DNA of 64,000 bases from an uncultured bacterium (GTDB taxonomy: Bacteria > Zixibacteria > MSB-5A5 > CAIYYT01). Location of the stretch: the NCBI GenBank assembly GCA_963726455.1, contig CAVSCK010000002.1, forward strand, positions 61,383 to 125,382, written 5' to 3'. The position numbers were made by a program, and so were the translations under genes. Positions 1-6,776 of the stretch are shown here, one piece after another. The first letter of the stretch is position 1. Each line of letters opens with the position of its first letter. The notes under the pieces were generated by a model. That model made no database searches. It was not told where the DNA came from and saw nothing but the letters and a program-made list of their open reading frames with translations.

Positions 1-348
1 CGGTGACGCTCTGGAAAGAGCAGGCGCGCGAATCAAAGCGCGAGTCAAGCCATTAACTTGCGGGACCAACCAGCCAGGAGGAAGTAACAACAATAGTTTT
101 CAGGAAGCGCAGAATTCTTCCGTGTAGCACGTGCACTCCAAAGAAAGTTCACTCGGACGGCGGTTCTGTACCTACTGGATCAATCCGATGGCCTTCGGCA
201 TTATGGTCCTTGCCGATCAGGGATGTCACTTCTCGACAATTTGGCTTGAAGAAGGGGACGATTCTTCTATCTTTGTAATCGGAAAGCAGAACTGACCTCG
301 AAGACAATTTAGTCATGGTTGTGATGCATAACACCCGTTCCGTTACAA

Positions 349-364
349 AGGCACTCTAATTGCA
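349..364 (+). promoter_or_regulatory. sigma54 (-24/-12) promoter of the activator gene
   Basis: AGGCAC-TCTAA-TTGCA; GG at 350-351 and GC at 362-363 with the canonical 10-nt spacing; lies 15 nt before ATG 379. Confidence 0.65.
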
Positions 365-378
365 GAATCGGCAAGACC

Positions 379-3300
379 ATGCTACCAGCGCGATTTGAAC
401 TAATCCGACAAATCTCTTCAGGTGGCCTCTATGACACGTTCCTTGCGCTCGATCGCGTGACTTCACGCCAAGTGCTGGTTAAGCGACCGGCTGAGATATC
501 CAATATCTCCATTGAAGAACGAAATGCACTTCTGAGAAAGTCATATTCGATTCTCAAGCTCCTGAAACATCGTGGCATTGTGATGCCGTGCGCACTCGTC
601 GAAGAAGGCGGCAGAAGCCACGTTGCCTATCCATATTATGATGAGCAACGATGGGTTTCCTTGTCGCCGGAGTTGTTCTTGGAGCACTATCGAACGCTGC
701 TGGTGCAGATGTGCACGATTCTTGATTTCGTGCACGCCATGGGCTTCGTACATAGCGATATCAAGAAGGCCAACTGGCTATGCCTCCGCCGTGAATCGGG
801 CCTCCGGGTCTTGTTGACGGATTTTGACTTTGCCGTTCGTAGCGGTTCGAAACCGAACCGGCGAATCTTCGGATCGCTGGGGTTCATGGCACCCGAAGTG
901 CTGCGGGATGAGATCGTTTTGCCGCAGTCCGATCATTTTTCTTTCGGTCGCATGTTGTTTGAACTCGTATCGCACGCTACGCCTAAAGAAGAATTGTCGC
1001 TGCCAAATATCCTGACGTCCGGACTGGAAGAACAACAAATCACCGGTGATCAAGTTCGGGCCGGTTTTGAGCCACTAGTGCCATTCATAAATAAACTGCT
1101 CAAGAAGCATTACGAGGATCGCCCCTCCAGTTTGGGAGTCCAGCTTCAGACCGAGCAATCCTTTCTCGGCGTACAGCTTTCGACTTATCAAAACCGTTTG
1201 ATTCAGGACGTTGTTGCTGCGCATTTGCGGCGCCGACGCCAGGAAGAGGAAGCGGCTGAGGAATCTCTTGAACGTTATCTACCTCGCGAAGCCGGAATCT
1301 TTGGCATTCCGAGCGAATTACTTCTCGACCTTTTCAACCTGGCTGAAATGAACTTCTTTGGAAAGGCCAGGATTTTCGCCGGCTGGCTGGCTGACTCGGC
1401 CGTCAATCGTCACGGTTCTTGCTGGCATGTGGAGATCACTGTTCGCCTGGTCGGAGACTTCTATCGCAGATTCAAAATTCTTGGCGAACCTACCGTTGAC
1501 CCGGCTAATGGTGTTGAGCAATGGAAGCGAATCCGCCGGGCGCTGCGCTTCAAGGTAAAGAATCAATTCCTCAAGGCCGCGGCGCTGCTGAGTCCGATCG
1601 TGCAAGCCGTCAGAATGTCGGATTCTGTTGCTAGTCGCAAGTTGCTCGCCCAGTTGCTACTGAAGATGGGTGAGTCTCTGCAATTCGCCAATATGCGAGC
1701 CGAGGGAAAGAAATGTTTTCGAGAGGCATGGGAACTTGGAGAGCTTTCAGATTTGCGCCGGATTCGATTGATGCTCGAAGAAGCCGATTTGGAGTCGTTC
1801 AGTCACGGCGGTATGTCATATCGGAAAGTGCTCATGCAGGCCTATGCGCTGGCACAAAGACGGGAACGTTCTGATTTGCGGGCCTGTGTCCTGATTCGGC
1901 AGATCTGGCTGGACCATACGGAAGGACGTCAATACGTGGCACTGCAAAGGGCCAAGACACTTGAGAGATTCTGCGCCAGACACAACCTTTATACCCGACG
2001 AGCATCCGCACTCTCCGGTATGGGCAGTATCTACTGGATATTGGGAAGATTGCAGGACGCCGTCGACGTCTTCCAAGAGGGTTTGCGCGCGAACCCGGAA
2101 CAAGTGAGCAGAGGAGTCAGGAATATTCTTGCCGCCAATCTTGGAGCGCTGCAGCACGATCTGGGCGATTATCGGAAGGTGGTAAACACGCTTCTCCCAT
2201 TCACACGGCAGAGTCTTTCAATCAACGAGGTGCAGTACAGGTCACAAGCTCTCGCCAACATTCAGGCAGCATACGCATTCCAAGGAAAGTACGACTTGGC
2301 TGAGGACATGTCGAATCAGGAGTTTTGGCTACCTTCCCAGCGGAGTGACTTGGGAGGTATCGGCCGGTATTACATTGGGCGAGGTTCAACGCTGTTGAGA
2401 GCGGGCAGATATCATGATGCGGAGTCTAATCTTCGGCAATCTGTGGAATTGTTGTCTTCACTGTCAAACACGGCGTTGCTGGGCCGCGCTGAGATGTACC
2501 TGGCGACGCTGCGCACCTGGCAGGGTCACTATGAAGTCGCCAGACAACATCTGTCTTCGGCGCGGACATTGATCAACTTGAACAGTGACAAGCTTCATTC
2601 GCTAGACCTGGATATTCTATCGCTGGCGATCGAATTCGACGAAGGTGTCTCCGACTCGATATCGGAAAGACTCAAAAGGTTGTATCAGGAATGTCTCGGC
2701 CTGCCTTATTATCTTGGCGCAGCATACTGCCTGTACTACTTAGTTTATGTTGGGCGTCCCTTCGATGCCGTGCGCCTTGCAGCAACAAGCGCCGAACTAA
2801 TGAAATACATGACCGGCTCGGGAGGAGTATTCGGAGCCGCCGTGGCGCAACATCTTCGCGCCTATACTGAATCCGAACCCTCCCAGGACGGCGTAGACAT
2901 CGGCGAACTCAAGAAGGCATTCGTAATGTACGAAAACGCGCATCTCTACTTCTATTCGATTACAGTAGCAAGACAAGTCGCCGAATACTATAAACGCCAC
3001 GGACATCCGAAACTTGCCGACAAGTTCATTGAAGAGGCCCTCTTCCACGCCGACCAACTCGACAACACACGCTTGAAATCCCAGCTTGAGGCGGCGCGGC
3101 TGGACATCCTGGGTGAAATTGGTGAGCCGATCCCGGAGCGCGACGTGTTGTACCGCATCAGCACTCTACTAGGCGGGCTCACGGATTACCGTCCTGCCGT
3201 CGAACAGTTGCTGCATTACGCAATCGATCTGACCGGAGCGGAACGCGGTGCGATTATACTTGCAGATGATGAGGGGCGCAATCTCAGAGTCGAATCGTCG

Positions 3301-4611
3301 TATGAATGCGATTCGCAGAGCGTCGCCGACATAGTTGCGATCAGTCGCAATGTGATCAGGTCGGTCTTCGACAAGGCCAAAGTGCTGTTCGTGGAAAATG
3401 CGCTTGACGATAAAGCCACCAAGTCATACAAGAGCGTGGTTATGCACAACATTCTTTCGATTGCCTGCGCTCCATTGGTGGTCGAAGGCAAAGTAATTGG
3501 CGCGTTATACCTGGATCATCACTCTCTTCCCGGACTCTTTACCAGTGATGACCGCGAAACCGTGGAAGCTATCGCAAATTTTATCGCGGTGGCCCTCTTG
3601 CAGGCGCGGCTGGTGCGTTCGTTGCGCAATCAGAATCTCGACCACCAGTATCTGTTGCGAAATCAGGGAATTGAGAACCAGTTTCTGACACGTTCCAGGA
3701 CAACGCTGGACATCATTGACAAGATACCGATGATCGCTTCATCAGAAGCATGTGTGCTGTTGTTGGGGGAAAGCGGGACCGGCAAGGAAATCCTGGCGAA
3801 AAGTATACACGACCAGAGTCCGCGAAAGGACGGTCCGTTTGTTCGCCTAAATTGTGCTTCTCTCGGCGGCGAGATGCTGGAAGCCAACTTATTTGGTGTG
3901 GAGAAGGGTGTGGCCACAGGAGTGGCAAGTCGCGAGGGCGTACTCCAGGCAGCCGACGGGGGCACGCTATTTCTGGACGAAATCGGTGATATGCCGCTGA
4001 CTACTCAGGCCAAGCTACTGCGAGTGCTGGAACTTAAGCAATTCGAGAAACTGGGAACCAACAAGACCATTGAAACAGATATTCGGTTAGTTGCCGCGAC
4101 CAACAAGGACTTGAACAAGCTCATCGATCAGAATCAATTTCGGGCTGACCTCATGTATAGAATCAATACGATTGAGATTAAGATTCCTCCTTTACGGGAG
4201 CGGCCAGACGATGTGAAGCTCTTGCTCGATCACTTCGCCGACGTCTTCGCCCGCGGGCGGAAAGTAACATTCACTTCAACGGCCACTGCTGCGCTGACCA
4301 GATATTCCTGGCCGGGTAATGTTCGCGAACTGCGGAATTTCGTCGAGAACGCCAGCGTCATGTCGAAATCCAGAGTTGTCGATATTGATGCGCTTCCGGA
4401 CGAAATTTCGAAAAACTACGTGAACACCATGAGTCTGGGCATACGCTCATTGACTGCTGAAGCTGAAAAGCAACTTATCGAGAAGGTGCTGGCCAAGAAC
4501 AACTGGAATCAGGCCGCGGCGGCCCGCGAACTGGGTCTTTCCTATGCGACTCTGCAGCGAAAAATAAAGAAATACGGAATTAAGCGACCCGACGACAACT
4601 CTTTCAATTAG
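379..4611 (+). CDS. Ser/Thr kinase-like + TPR/helical repeats + GAF + sigma54-activator AAA+ + Fis-type HTH (bacterial enhancer-binding protein)
   Basis: Kinase motifs VLVK, HSDIKKAN, DFD, GSLGFMAPE; TPR-like Ala/Leu helices; GAF (SIACAPL..GKVIGALYLD); Walker A GESGTGKE, Walker B TLFLDEIGD, WPGNVREL; C-terminal NQAAAARELGLSYATLQRKIKKYG. Confidence 0.92.
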   Translation: MLPARFELIRQISSGGLYDTFLALDRVTSRQVLVKRPAEISNISIEERNALLRKSYSILKLLKHRGIVMPCALVEEGGRSHVAYPYYDEQRWVSLSPELFLEHYRTLLVQMCTILDFVHAMGFVHSDIKKANWLCLRRESGLRVLLTDFDFAVRSGSKPNRRIFGSLGFMAPEVLRDEIVLPQSDHFSFGRMLFELVSHATPKEELSLPNILTSGLEEQQITGDQVRAGFEPLVPFINKLLKKHYEDRPSSLGVQLQTEQSFLGVQLSTYQNRLIQDVVAAHLRRRRQEEEAAEESLERYLPREAGIFGIPSELLLDLFNLAEMNFFGKARIFAGWLADSAVNRHGSCWHVEITVRLVGDFYRRFKILGEPTVDPANGVEQWKRIRRALRFKVKNQFLKAAALLSPIVQAVRMSDSVASRKLLAQLLLKMGESLQFANMRAEGKKCFREAWELGELSDLRRIRLMLEEADLESFSHGGMSYRKVLMQAYALAQRRERSDLRACVLIRQIWLDHTEGRQYVALQRAKTLERFCARHNLYTRRASALSGMGSIYWILGRLQDAVDVFQEGLRANPEQVSRGVRNILAANLGALQHDLGDYRKVVNTLLPFTRQSLSINEVQYRSQALANIQAAYAFQGKYDLAEDMSNQEFWLPSQRSDLGGIGRYYIGRGSTLLRAGRYHDAESNLRQSVELLSSLSNTALLGRAEMYLATLRTWQGHYEVARQHLSSARTLINLNSDKLHSLDLDILSLAIEFDEGVSDSISERLKRLYQECLGLPYYLGAAYCLYYLVYVGRPFDAVRLAATSAELMKYMTGSGGVFGAAVAQHLRAYTESEPSQDGVDIGELKKAFVMYENAHLYFYSITVARQVAEYYKRHGHPKLADKFIEEALFHADQLDNTRLKSQLEAARLDILGEIGEPIPERDVLYRISTLLGGLTDYRPAVEQLLHYAIDLTGAERGAIILADDEGRNLRVESSYECDSQSVADIVAISRNVIRSVFDKAKVLFVENALDDKATKSYKSVVMHNILSIACAPLVVEGKVIGALYLDHHSLPGLFTSDDRETVEAIANFIAVALLQARLVRSLRNQNLDHQYLLRNQGIENQFLTRSRTTLDIIDKIPMIASSEACVLLLGESGTGKEILAKSIHDQSPRKDGPFVRLNCASLGGEMLEANLFGVEKGVATGVASREGVLQAADGGTLFLDEIGDMPLTTQAKLLRVLELKQFEKLGTNKTIETDIRLVAATNKDLNKLIDQNQFRADLMYRINTIEIKIPPLRERPDDVKLLLDHFADVFARGRKVTFTSTATAALTRYSWPGNVRELRNFVENASVMSKSRVVDIDALPDEISKNYVNTMSLGIRSLTAEAEKQLIEKVLAKNNWNQAAAARELGLSYATLQRKIKKYGIKRPDDNSFN

Positions 4612-4629
4612 TCCTCACCACCTCCAAAA

Positions 4630-4651
4630 TTGTCACCGATTTCGGTGACAA
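4630..4651. promoter_or_regulatory. palindromic operator / upstream activator sequence 1
   Basis: TTGTCACCGA-TT-TCGGTGACAA, perfect 10-bp arms; core TCACCG-N4-CGGTGA. Confidence 0.6.
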
Positions 4652-4697
4652 CAAAACTCAATATTTGCGCCTGTTAGCACGTCCTCCGGTAACTGGG

Positions 4698-4713
4698 TCA
4701 CCGAAAACGGTGA
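4698..4713. promoter_or_regulatory. palindromic operator / upstream activator sequence 2
   Basis: TCACCG-AAAA-CGGTGA, the same core as at 4633-4648, 65 bp downstream. Confidence 0.6.
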
Positions 4714-4808
4714 ACTCTGCGCCGAACCGCCACTTGGCAGCTCATATCCCAAGACAATAAGCAGTTATACGACAAGGAGTTGCGAGATGTAGCTCTTCGG
4801 CAAGCATT

Positions 4809-4823
4809 GGGCACGCTTATTGA
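4809..4823 (+). promoter_or_regulatory. sigma54-type promoter (non-canonical -12 GA)
   Basis: GGGCACG-CTTA-TTGA versus consensus TGGCACG-N4-TTGC; correct spacing; downstream of the two palindromes and of IHF-like (CAA/TAA-N4-TTR) boxes at 4755-4782. Confidence 0.55.
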
Positions 4824-4876
4824 CATGCTCCTCCATGAAGGAAGTCTGAAAAGACCATCAACTCATAGGAGGAGTT

Positions 4877-5119
4877 ATGAAGAGAGCCAAATCCCTTACG
4901 GGCATCTTGCTGGCACTTCTGTTTTCCCTGCTGCTGGCAAGCTTCCTGGGACCGATGTCAGCCGTCGCGGTCGCTAACGACGGCGGCGGCGGCGGTTCTA
5001 TCCCGCCAACCATTATTCCGACCGATACAACTGATCCGGGTCACATCAGTGATCCCTCGGGAGACAGTACCGGGTGGGAGGCAAGTCTATTCTTGACACT
5101 CGTGGGGGTGCTGTTCTAA
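4877..5119 (+). CDS. small exported peptide (signal peptide, Gly/Pro/Thr/Asp-rich core, hydrophobic C-terminal tail)
   Basis: Strong RBS AGGAGGAG at 4867-4874; MKRAK + hydrophobic stretch + AVA cleavage motif; ends WEASLFLTLVGVLF. Confidence 0.75.
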   Translation: MKRAKSLTGILLALLFSLLLASFLGPMSAVAVANDGGGGGSIPPTIIPTDTTDPGHISDPSGDSTGWEASLFLTLVGVLF

Positions 5120-5143
5120 CCACGAATTCCAAACTGAAAGGAG

Positions 5144-5803
5144 ATGTGGATGGGACTGCACGGTCAGCCCCATCCGAGCCAAATGAGTAAACTAGATAAG
5201 CTGCTGCTGATTCTGAATCTGCTGTATCATCGCCCGCACGTGTCCCTGGAATCAATCCAGCGCGAATGTCAGATCAGCGAGCGAACAGCGTATCGTTATG
5301 TTCGCTCTCTTTCGAGTGCGAGATTCCCTGTCTACTTCGATGAGGAAGTCAAAGGTTACCGCCTGGTTGAGCGCGGCAGCCCTTTGTCGCACCTGACTGC
5401 CGATGAAGCAGCCATGGTGCTTTTCGGATTGGTAATGTTGGAGAAATCGCTCGGCCCGTCAAGACTCGATGCGGTAAGAAGGGCCCGGGCAAAACTGGAG
5501 ATGAAGCTAACTGCGAATATGCAGGAGGTGATTCTGGCCGGCAAGCCACTCCTCTACGATAGGCATACTCCCGAAGTGATAAAAGAGCATCTCGTCATGT
5601 CCCTGATCAAACTCGCTAATACCGAAGAGTGTGGTGTGAAGCTTCAGTATACGGGAGAGAATACACAAGGGAAGAACATCATATTCGACAAACCACGTCT
5701 GATTTTTGACAATGAGTGGATGATAGGACCCAAGCGGGATTCGCTGCCTGAGTCAAGGATTCCAATTCGTCTGGTACGCGATCTGAGTCTTCTCAATACC
5801 TAA
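5144..5803 (+). CDS. HTH_11 (YafY/PafB-like) transcriptional regulator with a degenerate WYL-like C-terminus; start may be 5150 or 5183
   Basis: MSKLDKLLLILNLL...ISERTAYRYVRSL...P+Y...GYRL and LTADEAAMV, typical of the N-terminus of WYL-family regulators. Confidence 0.75.
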   Translation: MWMGLHGQPHPSQMSKLDKLLLILNLLYHRPHVSLESIQRECQISERTAYRYVRSLSSARFPVYFDEEVKGYRLVERGSPLSHLTADEAAMVLFGLVMLEKSLGPSRLDAVRRARAKLEMKLTANMQEVILAGKPLLYDRHTPEVIKEHLVMSLIKLANTEECGVKLQYTGENTQGKNIIFDKPRLIFDNEWMIGPKRDSLPESRIPIRLVRDLSLLNT

Positions 5804-5933
5804 TGGTGTTGCTCTGAGACGTTGAGACTCTGATTCACAGACTGCTTGAAAGGATGTCCAAATCCGGCAAGAAAAAAAATCGCTACCCGCTGACAGGATT
5901 TGACAGTGGCTGAACTTACCTTGAGGAGGTCCG

Positions 5934-6190
5934 GGCAGGTTACTAGCCAGCCCGAAAAGGGGATTTAGGGGGGCAGAAGAATAACATAGCAGGGAAGAGA
6001 CCATCTCAGGAGAGGGGGGCAGGAAACTCCCGAGAACACCGAATCCCTTCCCCGCATTGCCAATTAACTAGTTGGTTGTCTTTCCAGCAACCAGAAAATC
6101 CCCTGCTTTAAGAAATCCTGCGTCCTCGGAGGGACGCCGGAGACGCCCGTCAACCCGGCAACTCGAATTCTGGCTTGAGTTAGACTTGCC
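5934..6190 (+). ncRNA. candidate structured non-coding RNA (multi-branched)
   Basis: Nested pairings GGCAGGT/ACTTGCC, AGCCAG/CTGGCT, AGCAGGG/CCCTGCT, TGGTTG/CAACCA, GCGTCC/GGACGC; G-U pairs favour the + strand; no convincing ORF. Confidence 0.4.
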
Positions 6191-6224
6191 TTATGGTACC
6201 TTGTGTCCAGTGGTTGACTTGGGA

Positions 6225-6776
6225 TTATTGGCTAGACTTGTCATCCCAGGCCACGATGCGATACAGATTGTCCTGTTTGTTCTTGCGAAATTTGAATTCG
6301 GCAACTCCCACGGCCTCATAGAATTCGCTGCCGTAGTCTCCGTTTAAGTCCTTGACTGACAAGTGGAAGTAGACACGCCAAACTTCCCAGATTTCGTCAG
6401 AATGCGTCTCTTGACGGTCGAAAATGGGCACCCAGGTGTCGAGAGTGATTTCGTCGAACAGCCGAAAGAGCTTCTCCGTGCGTGCCAGATCACCGGAGGG
6501 GCCGTCACGGGGAATCTCGACTTGCTCGATCTGGCCGGTTCGATCCTGATCGACATAGCGGAAGATGAACTGCTCGTCGAGGCAGTTTTCGTAAACGTCG
6601 ATATCGTGATGTTCATAAGAGTACTTGAAATTGTGAAGCACCGAATCGGGGGACGTTTGCTTGACGATCGGAACGATGCGAGACGGTCCGATCACTGCCG
6701 GAGCAAAAGGATTTTGGCAGGAGACAAAGATGACCGTCGCTGTAACCGCGATCGTTATGGCGCTAACGGTACGCAT
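6225..6776 (-). CDS. lipoprotein, NTF2/SnoaL-like fold likely
   Basis: Lipobox FVSC; NPF, P..VL.N...SY and CLD..F.FRY motifs shared with the upstream neighbour. Confidence 0.8.
   Translation of the reverse strand: MRTVSAITIAVTATVIFVSCQNPFAPAVIGPSRIVPIVKQTSPDSVLHNFKYSYEHHDIDVYENCLDEQFIFRYVDQDRTGQIEQVEIPRDGPSGDLARTEKLFRLFDEITLDTWVPIFDRQETHSDEIWEVWRVYFHLSVKDLNGDYGSEFYEAVGVAEFKFRKNKQDNLYRIVAWDDKSSQ

Follow-up and report, generated by a model that had tools for sequence, protein, structure and literature searches.

The locus described here lies at the beginning of a 64,000-nucleotide (nt) stretch of DNA (the window) from an uncultured bacterium of the phylum Zixibacteria (contig CAVSCK010000002.1, positions 61,383 to 125,382 of the forward strand), whose genome assembly, 3.64 Mb in 5 contigs, has a completeness score of 100%. 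Three genes follow one another on the plus strand. The first (nt 379-4611) is an open reading frame (ORF) of 1410 amino acids (aa) for an activator with kinase, TPR, GAF, AAA+ and helix-turn-helix (HTH) domains. The second (4877-5119), starting 266 nt after the activator stop codon, is an 80-aa ORF for a peptide with signal-peptide features, and the third (5144-5803) is a 219-aa ORF for an HTH-WYL regulator. The spacer between the first two genes carries a pair of inverted repeats and a -24/-12-type promoter. The original prediction for this DNA, made from its letters alone, had placed the same three genes here and had not recognised them as a described system. The ORFs and domains were found again in the present work, and a literature search, with subscription journals outside its coverage, turned up no description of the module among the papers listed, which seems to be an undescribed variant of enhancer-dependent regulation. 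We think it fairly probable that the three genes form a self-contained module, in which the activator works from the repeats on a sigma-54 promoter that serves the peptide and the WYL factor.

Conservation of the gene order

Full-length activator homologs with 29-40% identity were found in a search of 40 relatives, and 17 such loci were fetched with their downstream DNA. With activator residues 1-924 as the query (E<=1e-20), the family was found in 109 of 285 genomes of the phylum, nearly always as a single copy; among other families of genomes, it was present in 16/20 of f1, 46/108 of f7, 18/33 of f15 and 15/20 of f18. The set used to study conservation contained 37 loci, i.e., the window and 36 fetched loci with usable downstream DNA; 17 of the 37 are close loci, and 20 were picked non-randomly across families from the 109 matching genomes. 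The original prediction had proposed that homologs of the activator be inspected for the spacer motifs and the small ORF, and the arrangement was recovered. The activator of about 1400 aa is followed by a recognisable small ORF in 35/37 loci (66-105 aa, about 250-330 nt 3' of the activator stop), and a full-length WYL-type regulator of 200-230 aa comes after the small ORF in 34/37; the three loci without one have a contig end, a masked stretch and a gene fragment, respectively. A promoter footprint, described below, was present in all 33 loci scored. In two loci the peptide ORF is disrupted, by an in-frame stop in G017 (L037) and by a frameshift in G174 (L155), reflecting either gene decay or assembly errors.

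One genome, G201, has two complete modules about 31 kb apart on one contig (L163 and L164), with repeats of the types TTGCCA and TTTGC(T/A) and with diverged peptides and peptide tails. Two modules with different repeats match the expectation for insulated parallel circuits.

Repeats, promoter and leader of the proposed peptide operon

The C-terminal part of the activator is that of an enhancer-binding protein (EBP). Pfam finds a Sigma54_activat AAA+ domain (PF00158, 8.6e-59; residues 1104-1267), an AAA lid (residues 1273-1347; AAA+ domain and lid together, nt 3688-4419) and a Fis-type HTH_8 domain (4.9e-14; residues 1360-1399, nt 4456-4575). The Walker A columns G1130-K1136 and residues D1200/E1201 are invariant in the ortholog alignment, and an AAA_16 match at residues 1122-1165 is to this same Walker A. 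The best NCBIfam model, nifA, covers residues 923-1339 with 334 bits, under its cut-off of 528.

Two palindromic sites, to which no strand is assigned, lie just past the activator gene. Site 1, TTGTCACCG-ATTT-CGGTGACAA (4630-4651), is centred about 194 nt before the predicted transcription start, and site 2, GGTCACCG-AAAA-CGGTGAAC (4696-4715), is 65 nt from site 1. The two identical TCACCG-N4-CGGTGA boxes of the original prediction are indeed there, at 4633-4648 and 4698-4713, and none of 100 shuffles of the window yielded two. The genome holds 6 exact copies of this box; of the other 4, three are within long ORFs and one is intergenic. The intergenic copy (L174; G000:C5:199500-204000, feature region about 880-3740) adjoins three TTCGCGAA-type palindromes, and downstream of box and palindromes come a signal-peptide ORF of 117 aa and genes for a TPR protein of 342 aa and a sensor-less sigma-54 activator of 393 aa. 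This locus may be cross-regulated, or may be a second case of the theme of a small exported protein plus TPR plus EBP.

In close relatives of the window the same place is taken by two compact palindromes, spaced by about 65 nt, with the half-sites TAACCG, TTACCG, TTGCCG or TTGCCA, and distant relatives have arrays of TTTGCCA-type half-sites in the spacer. Inverted repeats (7-nt arms, <=1 mismatch, gap 2-6) were found in 29 of 35 spacers; 200 shuffles gave 18.4 on average and 25 at most. The original prediction had proposed a test of whether the palindromes co-vary with the HTH, and they do: judged from the aligned sequences, the type of half-site goes with the recognition helix in the activator's HTH_8 domain. 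In the first 140 nt of the spacer, the 13 loci with the helix (I/M)PL(S/T)(T/N)(L/F)RR had 35 TTGCC(A/G) half-sites (shuffles, mean 1.5, max 10) and 5 T(C/A/T)ACCG, and the 10 loci with TLQR, VLKR or ILKK helices had 34 T(C/A/T)ACCG and 3 TTGCC(A/G), counts that overstate their independence because the grouping was post hoc and the loci share ancestry. At the third half-site position, the pairing of Arg with G, and of Gln or Lys with A, would fit common recognition rules. The covariation and the HTH_8 match together point to the C-terminal HTH of the activator as the likely reader of the repeats.

The peptide-operon promoter, GGGCAC-GCTTA-TTGAC (GGGCACGCTTATTGAC; 4809-4824, plus strand; core GGCACGCTTATTGAC, 4810-4824), has a predicted start site near 4835. 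In the related loci a GG..TTG element with sigma-54 spacing lies, for the most part, 56-69 nt before the peptide start codon; it was seen in 33/33 loci scored, with 6/6 positions matching in 18, 5/6 in 13 and 4/6 in 2, after two of the 33 automatic placements had been corrected by eye. No conserved -35/-10 pair was seen at the peptide promoter across the aligned loci. The genome has rpoN and two genes of the HU/IHF family. Between repeats and promoter, an IHF-like box (<=1 mismatch) occurs at one fixed offset in 13/33 loci, where 500 shuffles averaged 2.2 and never exceeded 7; at the corresponding place the window has an A+T-rich stretch (4754-4770, plus strand), a weak match.

Overlapping the promoter, at -7 to -1, is an anti-Shine-Dalgarno (anti-SD) run that the original prediction's reading of the spacer overlooked. 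The run, CTCCTCC (4828-4834, plus strand), is complementary to GGAGGAG at 4868-4874. A CCTCC-rich run at -12 to +1 is complementary to, and covaries with, the Shine-Dalgarno (SD) region of the peptide gene about 40 nt downstream here and in 32 related loci, with extensions (up to 12 bp) that are specific to lineages. Cognate anti-SD/SD duplexes had a mean energy of -15.0 kcal/mol versus -11.2 kcal/mol for non-cognate ones, a mean reached by 0 of 5000 permutations, and 9/33 cognate pairs ranked first. The predicted RNA of 4818-4885 folds at -22.7 kcal/mol (z -3.93) with SD and AUG paired; that of 4835-4885, without the run, folds at -8.8 kcal/mol (z -0.9). RNAalifold gave no consensus pairs for 30 leader sequences because the run is out of register in the alignment, and the duplex-energy test was used instead. 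A terminator scan found no site between the activator stop and the peptide start; its sole plus-strand match, 4521-4537, is within the activator ORF. On transcripts that read through from the activator gene, the anti-SD run would keep the peptide from being translated, and sigma-54 transcripts, starting just past the run, would stay translatable. An anti-SD element inside a promoter suggests a simple means of making translation dependent on which promoter made the mRNA.

That the activator drives the peptide-WYL operon through sigma-54 is the most likely reading, because the half-site type follows the helix, the IHF-like box has a fixed place and a GGCAC-N5-TTGA promoter precedes the peptide gene. 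The Fis-type HTH would bind the two repeats just past the activator's own stop codon, the DNA would bend at the IHF-like box, and the AAA+ ring would activate sigma-54 RNA polymerase at the promoter, with the repeats lying about 190 and 125 nt upstream of it.

Besides the overstated independence of the half-site counts, several findings weigh against sigma-54 activation by this protein. The L1 loop of the AAA+ domain (residues 1177-1182, nt 3907-3924, plus strand) reads, by sequence comparison, GVATGV instead of the GAFTGA of sigma-54 activators, a change that the original prediction's picture of the activator had missed. A replaces F in 17/19 aligned orthologs, and more distant relatives have GVATTV, NAATGV or KAATDV. 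In PspF, F85 and T86 contact sigma-54 region I, and a bulky cross-linker at any position of the loop abolished open-complex formation (PMC3467059). Activation through sigma-54 is not assured, because the loop is changed family-wide at the PspF contact position. At the promoter, the -12 dinucleotide of the window is GA, not GC, and after TTG, where the consensus has C, 25 of the 33 loci have A, 5 have T and 3 have C (by eye); the second sigma-54-type promoter of the original prediction thus keeps its conserved GG and TTG blocks but not the expected dinucleotide. The IHF-like boxes of that prediction fared similarly: no site with <=1 mismatch to the consensus WATCAANNNNTTR lies between boxes and promoter in the window, and it is the relatives, with their shared offset, that exceed the shuffles. 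Lastly, the anti-SD role rests on unproven read-through, because a canonical start leaves most of the run outside the transcript.

These deviations raise the alternative that the activator is sigma-54-independent, like the GAFTGA-less NtrC and HupR-type proteins, and that GGCAC..TTGA is not a sigma-54 promoter. Caulobacter NtrC, which reportedly has no GAFTGA loop, is a precedent, and it has been called an unconventional bacterial EBP. The genome itself makes the loop stand out: of its 20 EBP-type matches, the window activator alone has A at the third loop position, and the other 19 have F or Y (GAFT, GSFT, GAY(T/S)). To this family-wide change is added the mostly absent -12 C. Against sigma-54-independent action, the loop T and the rest of the AAA+ signature are retained, and the GG/TTG spacing and the fixed distance to the start codon hold in 33/33 loci with no conserved -35/-10 pair seen. 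Repeats 125-190 nt upstream together with an IHF-like box make a classical enhancer layout. Further, intergenic GGCA(C/T)-N5-NTG(N) sites in the genome end in TGC 56 times, TGA 42, TGT 20 and TGG 14; TGA sites are nearly as common as TGC and well above the other two, which suggests that TGA is a usable -12 element in this organism. We therefore regard sigma-54-independent action as unlikely. With sigma-54 activation as the preferred reading, the activator family departs from two highly conserved sigma-54 rules (F in GAFTGA, C at -12) and keeps the enhancer layout phylum-wide, a natural test of how far the L1 loop and the fork-junction contact are needed.

Products of the proposed operon and the sensor half of the activator

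The promoter would drive a two-gene operon, in which the peptide gene is followed by the gene for the HTH-WYL factor. The small peptide gene of the original prediction is there as ORF 4877-5119, which comprises a predicted signal peptide (residues 1-33), an acidic Gly/Pro-rich linker and a hydrophobic C-terminal tail (residues 67-80, nt 5075-5116). The signal peptide, judged by heuristic only, has a basic n-region, a hydrophobic h-region and the cleavage-like site AVA|ND. The ORF matched no Pfam, NCBIfam or PADLOC family; in the ESM Atlas the best peptide cluster, an 87-aa family seen most often in Zixibacteria, scored 0.89, below the 0.9 guide, and is a lead only. The 34 aligned relatives share the basic n-region, the hydrophobic core and an A-x-A|(D/E)-G junction, followed by a Gly/Pro/acidic linker, with two Cys in some lineages. 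Their predicted mature parts, 33-64 aa long, are all net negative (mean -6.6). The tail consists of 12-15 hydrophobic residues after an acidic residue, ends in L, F, I or Y in 32/34 relatives, lacks a basic anchor and has less than the usual length of a membrane span. The first operon product would thus be exported by the Sec route as an acidic peptide about 45 aa long, starting with conserved (D/E)G and ending in a hydrophobic helix. One relative, G119, has two tandem peptide genes (L168 2710-3291, minus strand), whose products differ at 8 of the last 20 residues versus 4 of the first 66 (by eye).

Upstream of its EBP part, the activator carries a Hanks-type kinase (Pkinase, residues 7-251, nt 397-1131), a helical and beta-hairpin segment (nt 1141-1503), a TPR solenoid of about 30 helices (nt 1513-3174; Pfam TPR at residues 542-735) and a GAF domain (residues 941-1073, nt 3199-3597), all but the second found by Pfam. 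In the kinase, K35 is nearly invariant among 19 sequences, and H125, D127, N132, D148 and A171-P172-E173 are invariant. Its catalytic activity is uncertain because a single conserved Gly is left of the Gly-rich loop and helix C has no conserved Glu (both by eye). An AlphaFold model of residues 255-940 (predicted local distance difference test score, pLDDT, 86.8; predicted template modelling score, pTM, 0.84) has about 120 residues of helices and a beta-hairpin and then the solenoid, which is most like the generic long TPR solenoids of APC subunits and LGN. In the window activator, residues 255-540 gave no Pfam match to a P-loop NTPase (AAA_16, NACHT or NB-ARC). In the model the 120-residue part looks like a remnant of a STAND module, a reading based on longer relatives that carry AAA_16: the activators of families f6 and f18, about 1675-1705 aa long, retain an AAA_16 STAND NTPase between kinase and TPR, at 284-344 in the 1675-aa form. 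MalT-type TPR matches also occur in the activator family. The activator would then be a cytoplasmic multi-sensor protein with kinase, STAND-type remnant, long TPR solenoid and GAF. The long-activator lineages have, between the peptide and WYL genes, a degenerate lone sigma-54-type AAA+ ORF of about 245 aa with Walker A and lid only (L043 3497-4249, minus strand; L172 989-1717, plus strand).

A cytoplasmic TPR regulator beside a Sec-type propeptide gene that is apparently under its control recalls the RRNPP quorum-sensing pairs of Firmicutes (PlcR-PapR, Rap-Phr, NprR-NprX and Rgg-SHP). The original prediction had seen here an RRNPP-like cassette, i.e., an autoinducing circuit in which the exported peptide or its tail re-enters the cytoplasm and binds the TPR solenoid, and the activator raises peptide transcription. 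What stood was the conserved unit of EBP, repeats, promoter, peptide and HTH regulator. Four of the five published signature features of such pairs (PMC10075063), namely a small propeptide, a Sec-type signal, a TPR regulator and direct neighbourhood, are found or plausible here; the fifth, a receptor of 250-500 aa, is not, the activator being 1410 aa long. The activator does appear to control the peptide gene, the tail is the diverging part of the G119 tandem peptides, the paralogous modules of G201 have diverged peptides and repeats, and the mature (D/E)G N-terminus is conserved beyond what signal peptidase needs. Set against these are the long, strongly acidic mature part of 33-64 aa, versus RRNPP peptides of 5-10 residues, and a host that is a diderm. 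No OppA-family (PF00496) match was found in the 100%-complete genome, in a search that found the family in 11/14 known genomes used as controls and did not extend to other importers, and the neighbourhoods of related loci show no importer or processing-protease gene in the conserved module. No RRNPP receptor was among the 40 structural matches listed for the TPR model. A co-fold of activator residues 255-935 with peptide residues 34-80, run with alignments for both and without controls, had scores of 0.01 and 0.00, which do not bear on binding in either direction. The module also differs from the known pairs in its sigma-54 output and in its kinase and GAF domains. An autoinducing circuit is on balance improbable. 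The fuller version of the idea is equally doubtful. It holds that cells signal to each other with peptides by way of sigma-54: the fast-diverging tail would be the TPR ligand, the G201 modules and the G119 duplicates would each serve a channel of their own, and the output would be the WYL factor. If true, no earlier case of RRNPP-like receptor-propeptide logic would be known from a diderm phylum, the receptor would be an EBP, and peptide communication would be opened up in an uncultured diderm phylum; if the peptide is not a signal, the module would still be a compact, single-copy master switch, and its regulon could account for part of these organisms' biology.

For the third gene, the original prediction had the ORF right, as an HTH regulator, and missed its WYL identity. 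Conservation puts the start at M14 (nt 5183) of the 219-aa ORF. Pfam finds HTH_11 (9.7e-7), and PADLOC finds its WYL model over residues 16-188 (1.1e-16). The predicted structure (pLDDT 84.2) has five strands at 164-217, and its best Foldseek matches are DriD, PafBC, BrxR and CapW; ranks 1-24 among the matches listed were all WYL factors. The third protein shares HTH_11 and the WYL fold with these HTH-WYL factors and differs from them in being 219 aa long, versus about 280-330 aa, in having no WCX extension (in the model it stops at residue 219, right after the WYL strands), and in a gene that a sigma-54 activator probably controls and that probably shares its transcript with the gene for an exported peptide. 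As the second product of the operon, it may relay the signal to further genes.

Its recognition helix, ERTA(F/Y)RY, has the columns R47, T48 and R51 invariant in 15 sequences, and so the variable repeats have another reader than the WYL factor. BrxR, CapW and other WYL regulators often bind inverted repeats close to their own operons, and structures with DNA are among the Foldseek matches. The idea that the repeats are autoregulatory operators of the WYL factor, with the activator acting elsewhere, is very improbable, given a helix with the invariant columns of the alignment while the repeats differ between lineages, a repeat type that tracks the activator's helix, and a position 125-190 nt upstream of the promoter rather than overlapping it. 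Elsewhere in the genome there is a WYL-factor paralog fragment of 117 aa, with the HTH part only (5.9e-22; G000:C4:1064190-1064543, minus strand), which adjoins a gene for a 529-aa secreted protein. About 5 kb upstream of it on the same strand is a response-regulator EBP with its AAA+ domain apparently split between two frames.

Known relatives, upstream region and neighbours

In its GAF, AAA+ and HTH_8 core, and in its layout of repeats, IHF-like box and -24/-12 promoter, the module resembles the GAF-type EBPs NifA, FhlA and NorR. The activator differs from them in its extra 940-residue kinase/TPR N-terminus, in the GVATGV loop, in its sub-cut-off nifA score and in its target, here a peptide and WYL-factor operon. 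The same domain order as in the activator is found in kinase-STAND-TPR-sigma54 fusions (Pkinase-AAA_16-TPR-GAF-Sigma54, 1600-1800 aa) of Myxococcota, Thermoanaerobaculia and others; the window has a 1410-aa form without the P-loop module, and the distant fusions retain GAFTGA. Of the cousins of such kinase-STAND-TPR regulators, M. tuberculosis PknK and E. coli MalT have been studied; kinase-EBP fusions are reportedly mentioned in the paper on the Sorangium cellulosum genome. The module brings together three signalling systems that are mostly treated separately, namely sigma-54, a WYL factor, and a Hanks kinase combined with a STAND-derived TPR sensor, and adds a small exported peptide of no known family. 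A profile search of genome contigs with the activator alignment returned generic AAA+ motifs and ordinary EBPs of many phyla, and was uninformative for context.

Upstream of the activator gene, a sigma-54-like match, AGGCACTCTAATTGCA (349-364, plus strand), ends 15 nt before the ATG, with no repeats upstream. The original prediction had taken it for the activator's promoter; a similar site is retained in 0/15 orthologous regions upstream of the activator gene, and the match is probably not functional. Because the site is not conserved, the positive feedback on the activator that the prediction also contained is unsupported. A candidate sigma-70-like promoter, TTGAAG-16 nt-TATCTT, was picked out by eye at 246-273 (plus strand), and similar TTGAC-N16/17-TAnnnT sites precede several activator orthologs (by eye). 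The activator would be made from its own promoter, probably of the sigma-70 type.

The neighbours on the downstream side, encoded on the opposite strand, are housekeeping genes or have no assigned role, namely those for KsgA, TatD, MetRS, PSP1 and a TonB-dependent receptor. A defence system was considered, and PADLOC matched only its generic kinase, RtcR-type AAA+ and WYL models. The module was not filed as a defence island because it is single-copy and phylum-wide and has housekeeping neighbours (KsgA, TatD, MetRS). Between the WYL gene and the next gene, which is on the opposite strand, about 420 nt (5804-6224) are without an ORF call and contain G-rich runs; Rfam matched no family within 4400-6300. 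On the upstream side, window positions 1-127 are the end of a gene (G000:C2:60542-61438) for an NmrA-like NAD-binding protein, and an NmrA-like gene flanks the module in several genomes, on varying sides and strands (downstream in L034, L035, L036 and L038).

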